Shown here: piece by piece, positions 572-59,537 of the stretch
How positions within the stretch are numbered: position 1 is the first letter of the stretch
How the letters are laid out: every line of letters begins with the position of its first letter
From: Escherichia phage vB_VIPECOMC06
Length of the DNA stretch: 64,000 nucleotides
Sequence record: PQ416618.1
Reading direction: 5' to 3' (one strand)
Program-made: the position numbers and the translations under genes
Notes under the pieces: model-generated
Told to the model about the DNA's origin: nothing
What the model saw: the letters and a program-made list of their open reading frames with translations, nothing else
Databases searched by the model: none

Positions 572-811
572 ATGATTTATTACGAAAGTATCGGAACCAA
601 AGTGGTTGGTAAAACCATTACTCGTGAAAAGTTTGCAAAGATATTCGATATGCGTTATAAAAAATCTGAACACAAAGGCATCAGATTCGAAGATGCACAC
701 TGTACAATTTGCCCTTATAATGAAGACATAAATGGTACAATCGTTCCATTGGTAGAGGCTTCACATGACGACCTCTGGGATGAATATAATATCGCATGTC
801 GCGAAATTTAA
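572..811 (+). CDS. hypothetical protein (~80 aa)
   Basis: ORF downstream of early-promoter cassette; GGAG SD before ATG at 572 (track start 560 is upstream in-frame). Confidence 0.4.
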   Translation: MIYYESIGTKVVGKTITREKFAKIFDMRYKKSEHKGIRFEDAHCTICPYNEDINGTIVPLVEASHDDLWDEYNIACREI

Positions 812-839
812 GTTAATGAATTAATCCGAGGAAATTATT

Positions 840-1796
840 ATGATGTTAGTTATTGGTTCTCGTGCACTTCACTATCATGGACTTATTGATTCTAACGCTA
901 TCAAAAATAGTGACTGGGACTTTATTGCGGACCAAGGTTCTTGGAATACATTCAAAAATCAAATGATGGGTGTATATGTTCACCAAGATAACCCTGATGT
1001 CCAAGTTTTCAAATGCTTCCATAACGGACGCGAAACTCATTTTGAAGCATATATTGTTCCGGCAATCACTAATGTCCGTGAATTAGTCGGTGAACTCACT
1101 CCTGAAGATTTCACGTCTTCTTACGACCTTTTAAAATACGCCAAGAAAAATTTAACTAAAGACCGTTTGAACGGGTTTTACTGGGCAACTCCTGGGATGT
1201 GTCTTGCAATTAAGATGTCTCATCGTTTCAAGAAAAATAATCCATTCTTTTTAAAGACTATGAACCATATTCAGTATCTTCGTGGTAAAGGTGTTACACT
1301 GAACGATGAACTTACTGAAATTATGCTGAAACGCCAGAAAGAAACCTTGAACTATGCTCACCCAGTTCTTGACACTTCTAAAAGTGCGTTCTTTAAAGAT
1401 GACATCTATACATATGACCATGATACTATTCATGAAGCCATTGCACTAACAGACCGTCCAGCATATACATTTTATATGAAAGACGGTTCTGAAGTCATGA
1501 CCTCACGCGAGAAGTTTGAATCATTACCAGAAATGGTCAAATTGGCCGGTGTATACGAAGAATCATGTGTACTAGCATTAGAACGTTCTCAGATTCCTAA
1601 TGACTTTAAAATTAACCCTGAATCCAGTTTCATGATGGCATTGGAAAAAGTCTGTACAAGCATCACCTCCGGTTGGTTCCGTGAGTATGCCTGGGAAAAC
1701 TACAGCAAAGTAGTAAGTATGTACCAAAGCTTAGGACATGATGATTACGTCAAACGTTTCAAACAAAATTTCCATATGGTAAAACCTTTCAAATAA
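840..1796 (+). CDS. hypothetical protein (318 aa)
   Basis: Long ORF with GAGGAAA SD; no family recognised. Confidence 0.55.
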   Translation: MMLVIGSRALHYHGLIDSNAIKNSDWDFIADQGSWNTFKNQMMGVYVHQDNPDVQVFKCFHNGRETHFEAYIVPAITNVRELVGELTPEDFTSSYDLLKYAKKNLTKDRLNGFYWATPGMCLAIKMSHRFKKNNPFFLKTMNHIQYLRGKGVTLNDELTEIMLKRQKETLNYAHPVLDTSKSAFFKDDIYTYDHDTIHEAIALTDRPAYTFYMKDGSEVMTSREKFESLPEMVKLAGVYEESCVLALERSQIPNDFKINPESSFMMALEKVCTSITSGWFREYAWENYSKVVSMYQSLGHDDYVKRFKQNFHMVKPFK

Positions 1797-53107: not shown

Positions 53108-53196
53108 AATATCTCCTTAGTTACCTTATTATTTATTACGCTTTATAAAATTAATGTTAGAATTAACTCTCTTATACTGAATTGAAAGGAAAAATA

Positions 53197-53718
53197 ATGG
53201 CGCACTTTAACGAATGTTCACAACTTATTTCTGGTGTTGATAAAGCAGAAGAAGCTTATTTTAATGCTCTGATTCACGAAGATAAAGACCCACTGCAGGT
53301 AATGCTTGATATGCAGAAATCTTTACAAGTTCGTCTGGCAAATGACAAGCCTGAACATAACAAACATCCTGATGAATTGGCCACTGCTGGTGATGTTGTT
53401 GATTGGCTGCGTAATCAGAAAGATTATATTGATGATGAATTCCGTGAACTGTTGACTTCACTTGGCGGTATGAGCAATGGTGAAAAAGCCGCTAGCTCTG
53501 TATGGAAACCGTGGAAGGCACAACATGCTGAATATCGAAATCGTCGTATCGATGAACTGTCTCCTGAAGACCAGCTTGAAATTAAATTCGAGATGATTGA
53601 TATCCTCCACTTTGTCCTGAACATGTTCCAAGGTCTGGGTCTTTCTGCTGAAGAAATCTTTAAACTGTATTACTTGAAAAACCAACACAACTTTGAACGT
53701 CAGGATAATGGTTACTAA
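53197..53718 (+). CDS. 56: dCTP pyrophosphatase (dCTPase) gp56
   Basis: MAHFNECSQLISGVDKAEE...EIFKLYYLKNQHNFERQDNGY matches the T4 gp56 pattern; ATG at 53197. Confidence 0.85.
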   Translation: MAHFNECSQLISGVDKAEEAYFNALIHEDKDPLQVMLDMQKSLQVRLANDKPEHNKHPDELATAGDVVDWLRNQKDYIDDEFRELLTSLGGMSNGEKAASSVWKPWKAQHAEYRNRRIDELSPEDQLEIKFEMIDILHFVLNMFQGLGLSAEEIFKLYYLKNQHNFERQDNGY

Positions 53719-53763: not shown

Positions 53764-54000
53764 ATGGGTGGTTATGTAAACATCAAAACCTTTACGCATC
53801 CTGCCGGTGAAGGCAAAGAAGTTAAAGGTATGGAAGTTTCTGTACCGTTTGAGATTTATTCAAACGAACATCGGATTGCAGATTCTCATTACCAAATCTT
53901 TCCGTCAGAAAAGGCAGCATATTCTACTGTAGTTTCTGATGCAGCTGATTGGAAAACTAAGAATGCTGCAATGTTTACCCCTACACCGGTAAGCGGTTAA
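53764..54000 (+). CDS. soc: small outer capsid protein Soc
   Basis: GYVNIKTF...HYQIFPSEKAAYSTV; 78 aa; preceded by exact late-promoter box TATAAATA and followed by a strong terminator. Confidence 0.75.
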   Translation: MGGYVNIKTFTHPAGEGKEVKGMEVSVPFEIYSNEHRIADSHYQIFPSEKAAYSTVVSDAADWKTKNAAMFTPTPVSG

Positions 54001-54550: not shown

Positions 54551-54726
54551 ACAGAGTGATAAGATGGTTTAAAAGCTGGGACGATGGTGTCGGTCCGGAA
54601 GATTGGCTGGATGTTCTTGAAGAGAATATGGCTAAAGAATTCCAGAAACACGAAGAGAAGCTCATCGAAGATGAAGGCGAACGTATTGTAAAACTTTATA
54701 TGGGTGAACCATTGAGGAAATTATAA
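54547..54726 (+). CDS. hypothetical protein (~59 aa)
   Basis: ATGA coupling. Confidence 0.35.
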   Translation: MNRVIRWFKSWDDGVGPEDWLDVLEENMAKEFQKHEEKLIEDEGERIVKLYMGEPLRKL

Positions 54727-55190
54727 TGGATGCTATGTTATTTAAAATGTATTTGCTTGAAGCCAAGTCGTTTAAACATATACCAGTAGAAGATAAGACT
54801 CCACTAGAAATAGCTATTCTCATTAACAAAAGTCTAAATAATCCGCAATATATCGTAGAAGAATTCTGTAAATTGCAGATTCCTAAAGGTTACAAAATTC
54901 GTGTAGAGCGAGTTGGAGCTATTACTCATTCTAAAAATTCTCCGTTTAGTCTTGAAGAAGGCATAAAGGACTTAGGTTATGAATCTACGGAAAATGCCGT
55001 TTATGTTAATCCTGAAAAGCGTTTAGATTTGTTTGAAAAGCGAGACCATAAGTATTTTGCTAAAAAATACTTTATTACATCATTAGCAGATTTAACCCAT
55101 TTGCAACGAGCTATTTGGAAATTTTTTAAGACAAAAGGTGTATCGCTAGAAACATTCTCTGAACCTGCTAGTTTTTATCTCGGTGAATAA
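54726..55190 (+). CDS. hypothetical protein (154 aa)
   Basis: TAATG coupling. Confidence 0.45.
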   Translation: MDAMLFKMYLLEAKSFKHIPVEDKTPLEIAILINKSLNNPQYIVEEFCKLQIPKGYKIRVERVGAITHSKNSPFSLEEGIKDLGYESTENAVYVNPEKRLDLFEKRDHKYFAKKYFITSLADLTHLQRAIWKFFKTKGVSLETFSEPASFYLGE

Positions 55191-55191
55191 T

Positions 55192-55371
55192 ATGGACTTG
55201 ATGAGTATGTTTGATGAGCCTGAAGTTGAGGCTCCTAAAGTGCATCGTAGTGAACTTGTTGATGAACTAGATAGTATTATACAACGTCACGGCTTTAGTT
55301 TACCTGTTGAAGCCCTGAAAGACCTTGCCTCTTATTATGATGACCCTCCACCATGGAGTCCTTGGAAATGA
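55192..55371 (+). CDS. hypothetical acidic protein (~59 aa)
   Basis: ATG at 55192. Confidence 0.35.
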   Translation: MDLMSMFDEPEVEAPKVHRSELVDELDSIIQRHGFSLPVEALKDLASYYDDPPPWSPWK

Positions 55372-55532: not shown

Positions 55533-55560
55533 TTTACATTCCCTCCTCTCGTGTTATGAT
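55532..55560 (+). promoter_or_regulatory. early promoter
   Basis: GTTTAC, 17-bp spacer, TGTTATGAT. Confidence 0.5.
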
Positions 55561-55660
55561 AGGCTTATCTTTAAATGGAGGTCTATCATGACATGTCAAT
55601 CTGAACTTCAAGAACGCGAATACCTAACAAAATCATTCATTTAAAAATATTGAATTTTTA

Positions 55661-55690
55661 GTGTACAATCTCTTCCGATGATGATACTAT
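55661..55690 (+). promoter_or_regulatory. early promoter variant upstream of the ART gene
   Basis: GTGTAC, TGATACTAT. Confidence 0.45.
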
Positions 55691-55718
55691 ACCTTTATCA
55701 ACCATAGGAGAAACCTAA

Positions 55719-56327
55719 ATGTTTATGCCGTATAATGAATGTGAAATTGAAGAAATGGTTCGTCGTGCTCAATGCCCGGACTATCAGGATGAACTTCAGT
55801 ACAAAATAGATGAGCAATTCAGTGACATTGAACAAAGTGTACTGTGGCAATGTATGGAAAACAAGCCAGACAGCATCCAACAAGATTTAAGTGCAATTGT
55901 TCGTAGAAATTGGTCTTCTTCTGTTCCTGAGACAATGTATCGTGGAATCTCTAAGAAAACTATGGCCACACTCGATGATAAAGGCATTGGTAGTATTATT
56001 AAATTTGACAGAGTAATGAGCTTCAGCCCAGTGTTCAGTGTAGCACGTAACTTCGCTTCATATAATTTTTATGGAACATTTAATATGTTCTGCATCAAAG
56101 ATGCACCATTTGCTTTCAACTTCCGTGAACATATGCTTAACATGATTCTGGCTGCACCATCTTGCGAGTTCAATGGAGCTTTCCCTGAAGCTACAAGACG
56201 GTCTAATGCTAGACTTATATCTGACGAATGTGAATTTATGCTCCCTATAGGGACTACACTGCGTGTAGATTCTATTATTCAAGATGGACGTTATACAATC
56301 TGGAATCTGTCTATTGTAGGTTACTGA
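55719..56327 (+). CDS. ADP-ribosyltransferase (T4 ModA/ModB-like)
   Basis: ART triad-like elements: Arg in YRGIS, S-x-S in FSPVFSV, ExE in SDECEFM; ~200 aa; locus between soc and dda as T4 mod genes. Confidence 0.55.
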   Translation: MFMPYNECEIEEMVRRAQCPDYQDELQYKIDEQFSDIEQSVLWQCMENKPDSIQQDLSAIVRRNWSSSVPETMYRGISKKTMATLDDKGIGSIIKFDRVMSFSPVFSVARNFASYNFYGTFNMFCIKDAPFAFNFREHMLNMILAAPSCEFNGAFPEATRRSNARLISDECEFMLPIGTTLRVDSIIQDGRYTIWNLSIVGY

Positions 56328-56479: not shown

Positions 56480-57226
56480 ATGTTATCAAATAATAAAATT
56501 AACAAAATCAATCGTCGTCTTGACCACACCAGAGCTTCTGCGAAGAGACGCTCTAAGGATTTTAACTTAGACTTTAATTACCTTAAAAACATTCTTGATC
56601 AAAAGGTCTGCGCTTACTCAGGTGAATCTTTCAATAACTCTGTTGAAGGTGAGAAATTATCCTTAGAACGTTTTAATAATGATATAGGCTACATTAAAGG
56701 TAATGTTATCCCAGTTAAGAAAAAATATAACACGGCTCGTTCTGATTTAACATTAGAAGAGCTTATTGAGAAACGTGATGCCATTGCAAGACGTATCGCT
56801 AATCCTTCTGCCCGTAAAGTAGAGAAACTTAACCTCGACGAGAAGAAATGGGCCCAAATTAAAAAGGTTTATGGTACTATTTTAAAAATCCGAGCAAAAC
56901 GTGAAAATCGTGTTAAGCATATGGCGAACATGATGAAAAATCAACCTTTATCTAACGAATCTAAACTTAGAATTGTTGCTTTGAAAGCACGCATTAATGG
57001 CTCACATCAAGCAGAAGGCCATGAACTTACTAAACTCAACGTTCTTCTTAAAGGCTCTGACTGGAAAACTAAAACTAAATTAACTGACGCTGAATCGCTT
57101 TTCGATACATATGATAAAGTTATCCAAGGTCTGCAACGTTTTGAAAAGATCGGTTTCATTGGTAAATTAAAATTGAAACGTGGCTTACCACTTAGCGCAT
57201 CATTATTCCAACTGATTAAAGGTTAA
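56480..57226 (+). CDS. hypothetical basic protein (248 aa), possibly Srd-like
   Basis: Position corresponds to T4 srd (upstream of dda.1/dda); assignment is positional only. Confidence 0.4.
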   Translation: MLSNNKINKINRRLDHTRASAKRRSKDFNLDFNYLKNILDQKVCAYSGESFNNSVEGEKLSLERFNNDIGYIKGNVIPVKKKYNTARSDLTLEELIEKRDAIARRIANPSARKVEKLNLDEKKWAQIKKVYGTILKIRAKRENRVKHMANMMKNQPLSNESKLRIVALKARINGSHQAEGHELTKLNVLLKGSDWKTKTKLTDAESLFDTYDKVIQGLQRFEKIGFIGKLKLKRGLPLSASLFQLIKG

Positions 57227-57228
57227 TT

Positions 57229-57540
57229 ATGGTTTATGTATATGCAATAGTTTATCGAGATATGGAAGGATTTACTGTCCCGGTTCCACTTGATGAGCAT
57301 CGTCCTGCAGTATTTTTTAGAAAGGATATTGCAGATAAAGTTTTCGATACTTTGAAAACACAGTATAAAACAGATTTAAAAATGGGAGTTCTAAGAATGG
57401 TCGAAACTCCGCGTAAGTTCTGGTTTAATAAGCTTGAAATGAAACACGTTAAACTGGATGCGGAGACGCAAAAATTGTATCAACGAATCCTGGACACAGG
57501 CCGTATTGTTAGTATTCCAATTGCAGGGACTTTACGATGA
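57229..57540 (+). CDS. hypothetical protein (103 aa)
   Basis: Immediately upstream of dda, ATGA-coupled. Confidence 0.45.
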   Translation: MVYVYAIVYRDMEGFTVPVPLDEHRPAVFFRKDIADKVFDTLKTQYKTDLKMGVLRMVETPRKFWFNKLEMKHVKLDAETQKLYQRILDTGRIVSIPIAGTLR

Positions 57541-58850
57541 CATTTGATGATTTGACTGAAGGCCAGAAAAACGCCTTCAACGTTGTTATGAACGCTATTA
57601 AAGAAAAGAAACATCACGTAACTATTAATGGGCCTGCTGGTACAGGTAAAACAACCCTTACTAGATTCATCGTTGAAGCCCTTATTTCTTCTGGAGAATC
57701 AGGTATTATTTTAGCAGCCCCTACACATGCCGCTAAAAAGGTTCTAAGCAAACTTGCTGGACAAGAAGCATCGACTATTCATAGCATTCTTAAAATCAAC
57801 CCAACTACATACGAAGAAAACGTATTGTTTGAACAGAAAAAGGTTCCCGACTTAGCCTTGTGCCGTGTACTGTTATTTGATGAAGCATCAATGTGCGACC
57901 GTTCTCTGTTTAAAATAATGTTAGCTAGTATCCCTAAATGGTGTACAGTAATTGGAATCGGCGACCGATGCCAGATTCGTCCAGTAGACCCAGGCGAATC
58001 AACTGCGTATCTAAGTCCTTTCTTCACTCACAAAGACTTCGTGCAATGCAACCTTACAGAAGTTAAACGTAGCAATGCGCCAATTATTGATGTTGCGACT
58101 GATATTCGTAATGGCAAATGGATTTATGATAAAGTAGTTGATGGACATGGTGTTCATGGATATACAGACCTTAAATCGTATATGATGAACTATTTTAATG
58201 TCGTTAAAACTCCTGAAGACCTTTTCGAAAATCGAATGATGGCATTCACAAATAAGTCGGTGGACAAGTTAAATTCAATTATTCGCCGAAAACTTCTTGA
58301 AACAGAAAAACCATTTATTAAAGACGAAGTCATTGTTCTACAAGAGCCATTTACTAAGACATATAAGCTAGATGGTAAAAATATGACCGAAATGCTTTTC
58401 AATAACGGTCAATTCGTTCGTATTCGAGATGCTGTAGAAACGTCTACATTCGTTAAAGCACGTGGTGTTTCGGGCGAATATATGATACGATACTGGAATC
58501 TTACAGTAGAAACATATGGGGATGATGAAGAATACATCCGTGAAGATATAAAGGTTATTTCTTCTGAAGAAGAGCTTTATAAATTCAATTTGTTTTTGGC
58601 TAAGACAGCAGAAACATACAAATTCTGGAATAAAGGTGGTAAAGCTCCATGGAGCGAATTCTGGGATGCTAAACGTATGTTCACTAAGGTGAAGGCACTA
58701 CCAGTATCAACCTTCCATAAGGCTCAGGGTATGTCTGTTGACACGGCCTTTGTTTATACACCGTGTATCCATTATGCCGATTCAGAATTAGCTAAACAGT
58801 TATTGTATGTCGGCACAACTCGTGGCCGGTTTGACGTCCATTTTATTTGA
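57537..58850 (+). CDS. dda: SF1 DNA helicase Dda
   Basis: Walker A GPAGTGKTT, Walker B LFDEASM, C-terminal YVGTTRG; 437 aa. Confidence 0.9.
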   Translation: MTFDDLTEGQKNAFNVVMNAIKEKKHHVTINGPAGTGKTTLTRFIVEALISSGESGIILAAPTHAAKKVLSKLAGQEASTIHSILKINPTTYEENVLFEQKKVPDLALCRVLLFDEASMCDRSLFKIMLASIPKWCTVIGIGDRCQIRPVDPGESTAYLSPFFTHKDFVQCNLTEVKRSNAPIIDVATDIRNGKWIYDKVVDGHGVHGYTDLKSYMMNYFNVVKTPEDLFENRMMAFTNKSVDKLNSIIRRKLLETEKPFIKDEVIVLQEPFTKTYKLDGKNMTEMLFNNGQFVRIRDAVETSTFVKARGVSGEYMIRYWNLTVETYGDDEEYIREDIKVISSEEELYKFNLFLAKTAETYKFWNKGGKAPWSEFWDAKRMFTKVKALPVSTFHKAQGMSVDTAFVYTPCIHYADSELAKQLLYVGTTRGRFDVHFI

Positions 58851-58859
58851 GAGAAAATT

Positions 58860-59537
58860 ATGAGCACTGATGTTATTATAGATTTTGAAACATTCGGCAA
58901 TACATCAAAAGCGGCTGTTATTGACCTTGCGGTTATTGCATATAATTCCGGCCCTGAAGTTGTTGAATCATTTGAAGAACTTGTTCAACGAGGTAAGCGA
59001 ATTAAATTTAATTTAGCTTCTCAGAAAGGGAAGCGAGTTTTCGCTAAATCCACTATGAAATGGTGGAAAGAACAATCGGCTGAAGCACGTAAAAACTTGG
59101 CTCCGTCTGAAGACGATGTCACTACGCTTGAAGGCATTAAAATCTTTTTAGATTATTGTCGAGCTAATAAAGTTGACCAATGGAAATCACAGATGTGGTG
59201 CCGTGGTATGAGCTTTGACTTCCCGATCTTGGTCGATTTGATTCGTGACCTCTATCGTGATGAAGGTGTTCTTGAACCAGATATTGATACTGATAAATTA
59301 GAACCGGTTAAATTCTGGGCTCAACGTGATATTCGTACGGCAATCGAAGCTTACTCGTTGACACGAGGATTAAGTATGTGTCCATTACCGATGGGTACGC
59401 TAAAAGGATTCATTGCCCATGATAGTATTCATGATTGTGCTAAAGATATTTTGATGTTAAAATATGCTCAGCGTTATGCGCTTGGCCTTGAAGATGTCCC
59501 TGAGAATCCTGACCCGTTAAGTGTAAAACAGCGATAA
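58860..59537 (+). CDS. dexA: exonuclease A (DEDD-type)
   Basis: N-terminal IIDFETFG exonuclease motif; 225 aa; adjacent to dda as in T4. Confidence 0.85.
   Translation: MSTDVIIDFETFGNTSKAAVIDLAVIAYNSGPEVVESFEELVQRGKRIKFNLASQKGKRVFAKSTMKWWKEQSAEARKNLAPSEDDVTTLEGIKIFLDYCRANKVDQWKSQMWCRGMSFDFPILVDLIRDLYRDEGVLEPDIDTDKLEPVKFWAQRDIRTAIEAYSLTRGLSMCPLPMGTLKGFIAHDSIHDCAKDILMLKYAQRYALGLEDVPENPDPLSVKQR

Follow-up and report, generated by a model that had tools for sequence, protein, structure and literature searches.

The window analysed here, 64,000 nucleotides (64 kb) from Escherichia phage vB_VIPECOMC06 (sequence record PQ416618.1), comes from an RB69-like phage of the T4 type, genus Mosigvirus. Its identity to any phage in the collection is at most 97.6% over 12 kb, and the closest are Mosigvirus (RB69-like) phages. 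By the list of open reading frames (ORFs) and profile searches against Pfam and PHROG, the plus-strand ORFs around an ADP-ribosyltransferase gene, here called mod, mirror the early-gene cluster of T4 (Table 1). The order of mrh, phrog_1647 ORF, phrog_5790 ORF, a gene stub, mod, srd, dda.1 and dda agrees with that in T4, RB69, LHE83 and VR25, and mod is found in this early cluster between the modA.2-like small ORFs and srd/dda. Homologues of the phrog_1647 ORF carry the wrong label [quoted passage not shown] in at least seven phage entries of GenBank, an error propagated from the gene name. The mrh gene, intact in the window and in other relatives, is broken into two ORFs in the RB69 reference (746..955 and 1026..1211 in the numbering of the RB69 locus, region 746..1211). 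The N-terminal ~100-150 residues of Srd also match the HNH endonuclease and endonuclease VII families of PHROG (E 3.6e-18 to 7.7e-11), and this sequence likeness suggests that Srd may descend from an HNH-type nuclease domain.

Table 1. Genes and sequence features around mod (positions in the 64-kb window).
Feature	Position	Strand	Remarks
dCTPase gp56	53182..53718	+	
soc	53764..54000	+	small ORFs next, before mrh
mrh	54726..55190	+	Pfam T4_MRH, E 3.5e-38; single intact 154-aa ORF
phrog_1647 ORF	55183..55371	+	~54-62 aa among homologues; named modA.2 in RB69
phrog_5790 ORF	between phrog_1647 ORF and modB stub	+	PHROG
Promoter-like site TTTACA-16-TATGAT with TG (predicted)	55533..55560	+	10/12 matches; consensus scan; originally that of modB
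modB remnant (RB69 modB), 18-codon ORF MTCQSELQEREYLTKSFI*	55588..55644	+	first 14 modB codons joined out of frame to the last ~30 nt
Deletion junction, 5-nt microhomology ACAAA	55627..55631	+	overlap of BLAST blocks; ACAAA at both ends of the missing 508 bp (against NHEP11 and RB69)
Weak promoter-like site TTTAAA-18-TACAAT	55640..55669	+	9/12 matches; consensus scan; between stub and mod
Shine-Dalgarno AGGAG	55706..55710	+	8 nt 5' of the mod ATG; direct reading
mod, intact Mod-family ADP-ribosyltransferase gene	55719..56327	+	202 aa + stop; ATG start; ORF list, PHROG 832
srd	56480..57226	+	phrog_1400, E 1.4e-99
dda.1	57229..57540	+	Pfam Phage_Y01A
dda	57537..58850	+	
dexA	58860..59537	+	

The initial annotation had read mod as a gene for a 202-aa Mod-type ADP-ribosyltransferase in the mod locus between soc and dda; the ORF, on the plus strand and with an ATG start, and its location are both borne out. 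M1 is preferred as the true start over M3, the start annotated in RB69, because the position of the AGGAG fits M1. Membership in the Mod family of T4 is given by several searches. The product matches PHROG 832, "RNA polymerase ADP-ribosylase", in a profile search (E 9e-39), and blastp finds T4 ModB (9e-35) and T4 ModA (8e-21). No Pfam or NCBIfam match was obtained for it with a local Pfam copy that does not include the PF26816 model. This blank carries no weight against the family, because T4 ModA and ModB, used as controls, likewise score nothing in that copy and close homologues carry PF26816 in precomputed tables. By tblastn, homologues are found in 1078 phage records, most of which are labelled ADP-ribosylases, and in 892 of them the homologue spans at least 80% of the mod product. 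The top match is that of Escherichia phage NHEP11 with 99.5% identity, and its GenBank label is ADP-ribosylase. RB69 ModA (NP_861708, RB69p018) and the Mosigvirus orthologues (in NHEP11, XUK82550) are the same gene, of the same length and at the same position 5' of srd, and the product differs from RB69 ModA at 4 of the 202 residues. Thus, the gene is already known as a routinely annotated Mosigvirus Mod protein, with a 99.5% identical protein in GenBank.

The R / S-x-S / E-x-E arrangement described in the initial annotation is formed by R75 (in Y-R-G), S101-F-S103 and E170-C-E172, in the order and spacing of R-S-ExE enzymes. In a family alignment of 34 sequences, there is no variation at R75, G76, S101 and Y118, and E170 and E172 are kept in at least 90%. 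When aligned with the two T4 proteins, as that annotation had proposed, the catalytic residues line up with both: R75, S101, E170 and E172 correspond to R72, S96, E163 and E165 of T4 ModA and to R73, S99, E171 and E173 of T4 ModB, and the G76 region corresponds to G74 of ModB. Mutants at such positions have been described in T4: ModA E165A (PMC11404850) and ModB R73A/G74A (PMC10468400) are catalytically dead. The fold was examined in an AlphaFold2 model built on the family alignment (pLDDT 95.3, pTM 0.88). We know of no solved structure of any Mod protein, and comparison of folds was used in place of a sequence search of the PDB for this reason; a sequence match to ArdA in the PDB (E 0.07) was at chance level and was rejected. 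In Foldseek against the PDB, the top 50 matches are all R-S-E ADP-ribosyltransferases, each with probability 1.0 and TM scores of 0.31-0.50, and include the toxins and effectors Vis, VsdC, CDTa, C3, Certhrax, HopU1, iota, Tre1 and ExoT. Against BFVD, a collection of predicted viral structures, the top five are Mod proteins (TM 0.81-0.86), and the model of a T4-type ModA superimposes over the full length with a TM of 0.86. The ADP-ribosyltransferase fold, whose absence would have spoken against the initial reading, is therefore found in the predicted structure together with the N-terminal helical domain of the Mod type. Homology, catalytic motifs and predicted fold concur and support the identification of the product as a Mod-type ADP-ribosyltransferase. 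The catalytic fold and the motif order R, S-T-S, ExE are shared with cholera-toxin-like, C3/VIP2-type R-S-E enzymes such as Vis, C3bot, CDTa, iota Ia, Certhrax, HopU1 and Tre1, but identity to these bacterial enzymes is 10-18% (TM 0.31-0.50) and the N-terminal helical domain is particular to the Mod family. Unlike the bacterial toxins, the mod product does not have secretion or translocation parts and is made inside the host by the phage.

Upstream of mod, the remains of a second Mod gene can be recognized. A tandem pair of modB (193 aa, 582 bp) followed by modA is present 5' of srd in RB69, NHEP11 and ~140 other Mosigvirus records; in NHEP11 the pair consists of neighbouring ADP-ribosylase genes (193 aa and 202 aa), and the two-gene arrangement is also seen in SF, moskry, JM10 and LF82-2. 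In BLAST, the window is colinear with NHEP11 in two blocks at 97-98% identity, save for a loss of 508 bp within the upstream Mod gene. The junction was placed by the overlap of these blocks and by direct reading; the gap that MAFFT puts there is misleading. In tblastn with the upstream Mod of NHEP11, its residues 1-15 are found at 55588-55632 and its residues 184-193 at 55629-55658, and since 508 cannot be divided by three, the two ends are joined in different frames. On direct reading, modB still has its promoter-like site, its GGAGG ribosome-binding site and its first 14 codons. Carriers of the deletion and intact genomes have the same sequence at this promoter-like site, except for one base in RB69; judged from its sequence, transcripts from this putative promoter would run through the stub into mod. 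The second site in Table 1 is weak evidence for a promoter, because the scan count (8 sites) is near the expectation from shuffled sequence (5.2 +/- 2.2). A third candidate read by hand, TGTACA-17-TACTAT at 55662-55690, has 8/12 matches, below the threshold of the scan, and is not claimed as a promoter. T4 ModA, T4 ModB and the upstream paralog of the RB69 type, used as tblastn queries on the 64-kb window, revealed no further complete Mod gene; only the two remnants of 10-15 residues at 55588-55658 appeared. mod is thus alone at the locus through a 508-bp deletion that took almost all of modB. The initial annotation was right that a single Mod is evident, in that mod is the sole intact one in the window, but it missed the stub and the secondary nature of this state. 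That the single-Mod state is secondary follows from the two genes carried by the close relatives sampled and from the persistence of the modB stub.

Purifying selection acts on the retained gene, which is intact. Across 15 full-length orthologues dN/dS is 0.138 overall, with 0.154 in carriers of the deletion and 0.126 in intact genomes. The low dN/dS (~0.14) and the 892 records with a homologue of at least 80% coverage argue that mod is not a chance ORF. Variation among the 15 orthologues sits mainly in the N-terminal helical domain, and the catalytic half is nearly invariant. At residues 19-66 (window 55773..55916), two allele types, QCPDYQD(E/M)LQYKIDEQ and QNPEYQDVLQYEIDSQ, are seen among the downstream Mods of Mosigvirus. 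Each type is found both in carriers of the modB deletion and in intact genomes, a sign of a mosaic locus. Besides the deletion of modB, a feature that sets the window apart from RB69 and NHEP11 is S107 of the mod product in place of G107. This S107 (window 56037..56039), in the helix right after S-x-S, is particular to the window, and G107 is present in 15/15 Mosigvirus orthologues.

The identity of the remaining paralog was examined by position, similarity and phylogeny. As the last Mod gene before srd, 152 nt upstream of it, mod occupies the modA slot, which lies downstream of modB and directly 5' of srd in Tequatrovirus, Mosigvirus, Dhakavirus and Gaprivervirus alike. Of the tandem pair it represents the downstream gene, and the upstream slot, the place of ModB in T4, holds the stub only. 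Similarity scores point the other way. The product scores 106-111 bits against T4 ModB over the full length (31.9% identity) and 73-75 bits against T4 ModA (~34% identity), so that its best T4 match is ModB (111 against 74.7 bits) and reciprocal best similarity with T4 ModA is not found. The N-terminal stretch EQSVLWQCME is also very similar to T4 ModB, and FSDIEQSVLWQCME and YRGISK are near-identical to it. Some depositors even label the orthologue modB, while RB69 names it modA; outside Tequatrovirus, such labels rest on position and not on resolved phylogeny, and databases are inconsistent. From these likenesses, the retained enzyme could be taken as ModB-like, ADP-ribosylating and perhaps RNAylating translation factors such as S1, EF-Tu and trigger factor, and the deleted gene as polymerase-directed or otherwise divergent. 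We consider this unlikely, since not only the modA position in four genera but also several sequence comparisons stand against it. The deleted paralog matches T4 ModB (92.8 bits) and never T4 ModA. The best matches of T4 ModA outside its own group are downstream proteins (67-84 bits), and no match of T4 ModA to the upstream proteins of RB69 or Dhakavirus was detectable. Only T4 ModA and the downstream clade share NKPD, FP(E/D)(A/S)xR, (I/V)(S/N)DE before the catalytic glutamates and the loop length before ExE, where T4 ModB has a 5-residue insertion that is absent from the mod product.

Neighbour-joining trees were made with 34 and with 14 Mod proteins. The mod product forms a clade with the downstream proteins of Dhakavirus and Gaprivervirus with 97-100% support. 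This downstream clade is joined with T4 ModA in 43% of bootstrap replicates and with T4 ModB in 6%, at deep nodes that lack resolution in both trees. The smaller tree pairs T4 ModA with the upstream protein of Gaprivervirus, probably an effect of long-branch attraction. Isoelectric point and net charge failed to separate the paralog classes. The long branch of T4 ModA suggests fast evolution, in which case the higher score of the mod product against ModB is what would be expected. On the whole, position and shared motifs make it probable that mod is orthologous to ModA, with T4 ModA as a fast-evolving member of the group. Because the best T4 match by score is ModB and the deep tree nodes lack resolution, the target of the enzyme stays a matter of inference, and the initial annotation, which had called target specificity unclear on finding one paralog where T4 has modA and modB, was justified in its caution by these conflicting signs of score and position. 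The most likely target would be Arg265 of the RNA polymerase alpha subunit, extrapolated from T4 ModA across ~34% identity. A search of the literature found no biochemistry for any Mosigvirus Mod protein, and the determinants of ModA versus ModB specificity are not known even in T4 (PMC10468400).

Taken together, the locus is very probably explained by an RB69-like enzyme in the modA position that was left alone by the 508-bp deletion of modB. According to this explanation, mod would be an early gene, as the promoter-like sites and the precedent of T4 suggest, and the downstream member of an ancestral tandem pair of modB followed by modA. Its product would be a ~23-kDa NAD+-dependent mono-ADP-ribosyltransferase, presumably specific for arginine, with an N-terminal four-helix domain followed by the R-S-E catalytic core. 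Solved R-S-E enzymes suggest, by analogy, that NAD+ would be bound by R75 and S101-x-S103 and that the ExE loop, through E172 together with E170, would catalyse ADP-ribose transfer to an arginine on a protein of the host. In T4, ModA acts on Arg265 of both RNA polymerase alpha subunits (PMC2988021). If the mod product is ModA-like, it would modify both alpha C-terminal domains at the same residue, which would abolish the contacts with UP elements and activators and help to shut off host transcription. The deletion, between the two ACAAA microhomologies, removed almost all of modB and left the promoter-like site, the ribosome-binding site and the frameshifted stub. T4 ModB modifies S1, EF-Tu and trigger factor and, with NAD-capped RNA, RNAylates S1 and L2 (PMC10468400). 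If modB of Mosigvirus had the function of T4 ModB, the phage would have lost an enzyme that acts on these three proteins and RNAylates S1 and L2.

A single Mod gene is not peculiar to this phage. Winklervirus (Serratia phage CHI14), Kanagawavirus (Enterobacter phage IME523) and Jiaodavirus (Klebsiella phage Mineola) natively have one Mod, located between a modA.2-like ORF and srd, and the single-Mod state is thus common in Tevenvirinae. The two-gene arrangement is seen only in Tequatrovirus, Mosigvirus, Dhakavirus and Gaprivervirus, which infect E. coli. The native single Mods score about equally against both paralog clades, and phages without modB have been isolated repeatedly and are thus viable. 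Such cases would fit a retained enzyme that is a generalist over the targets of both ModA and ModB, so that modB was redundant and could be lost. This is quite improbable for the phage studied here, since no sequence difference that would indicate adaptation separates the Mods of carriers from those of intact genomes, both N-terminal alleles occur in either group, dN/dS is alike in the two, and ~90% of Mosigvirus records keep both genes.

The deletion of modB is found in other phages. A 50-nt junction probe matches 14 records, which represent 11 distinct phages: F2, phi25-307, PNJ-9, PNJ-6, p000v, SSE1, S143_2, ZQ3, EP02SG, HY126 and PHB12. The distance from the promoter-like site to the ATG of mod is 187 nt in the window and in nine carrier loci (all of the 11 but PNJ-6 and EP02SG), against 695 nt in intact genomes. 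The 281-nt flank is matched in 154 records, from about 150 distinct genomes, and the deleted segment, at 90% identity or more, in ~139. It follows from this difference that the other carriers are without modB genome-wide, and modB is indeed absent from their complete genomes; the present phage was examined within the 64-kb window. The frequency of the deletion is ~9% of sequenced Mosigvirus records. That modB is missing only through an artefact of assembly or cloning in one sequence, for which one could invoke the toxicity of ModA and ModB to E. coli in T4 work (PMC2988021) and breakpoints in short repeats, where mis-assembly is possible, is hardly credible in view of the identical junction and 187-nt spacing in independently isolated and sequenced phages (11) from several laboratories and countries, a 5-nt repeat too short to collapse a read-based assembly, and flanks that are otherwise colinear.

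Descent of the carriers from one ancestor was examined with neighbour-joining trees of the left flank (1.4 kb) and the right flank (1.5 kb), and in neither tree are the carriers a clade. The data fit either one deletion spread by recombination or recurrence at the microhomology. Recombination is typical of T-even phages. Two of the carriers are peculiar in other respects. F2 (NC_054913) is filed under Tequatrovirus (Tequatrovirus efftwo) in the NCBI taxonomy, and at the mod locus it has ~97% identity to Mosigvirus phages and the Mosigvirus modB deletion allele. In ZQ3 (vB_EcoM-ZQ3, MW630116; 2615..3172 in the numbering of the ZQ3 locus), mod encodes only 185 aa: an in-frame loss of 51 bp drops FAFNFREHMLNMILAAP, between DAP and AAP, which corresponds to strand 132-134 and helix 135-145 of the model. 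ZQ3 may thus be without any functional Mod enzyme.

It could be speculated that the loss of modB is a recurrent, selected event and not neutral decay, with the same 508-bp deletion standing on different flanking haplotypes in 12 phages. In that case, either a ModB-type activity, that is, ADP-ribosylation or RNAylation of the translation apparatus, would be recognized or counteracted in certain E. coli or Shigella hosts, or the retained Mod would have taken over the targets of ModB. We give this proposal only a small chance of being right. If it holds, pairs of natural Mosigvirus phages that differ in having modB would be ready material on the purpose of ModB and of RNAylation.

In T4, inactivation of ModB reduces the burst size 4- to 12-fold and delays lysis (PMC10468400). 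Given this reduction, a natural modB null is mildly interesting. About 9% of sequenced RB69-like phages, including the present one, are natural modB nulls that still plaque on E. coli or Shigella. Literature searches turned up no account of modB being naturally deleted in Mosigvirus, and as far as they went, this natural null allele is not discussed in print. It is material for the study of ModB function, although as a system it is not of a new kind. Natural pairs that are near-isogenic, for example this phage or PHB12 against NHEP11, are usable for questions on the dispensability of ModB, on compensation by the remaining Mod and on the host targets of each paralog.
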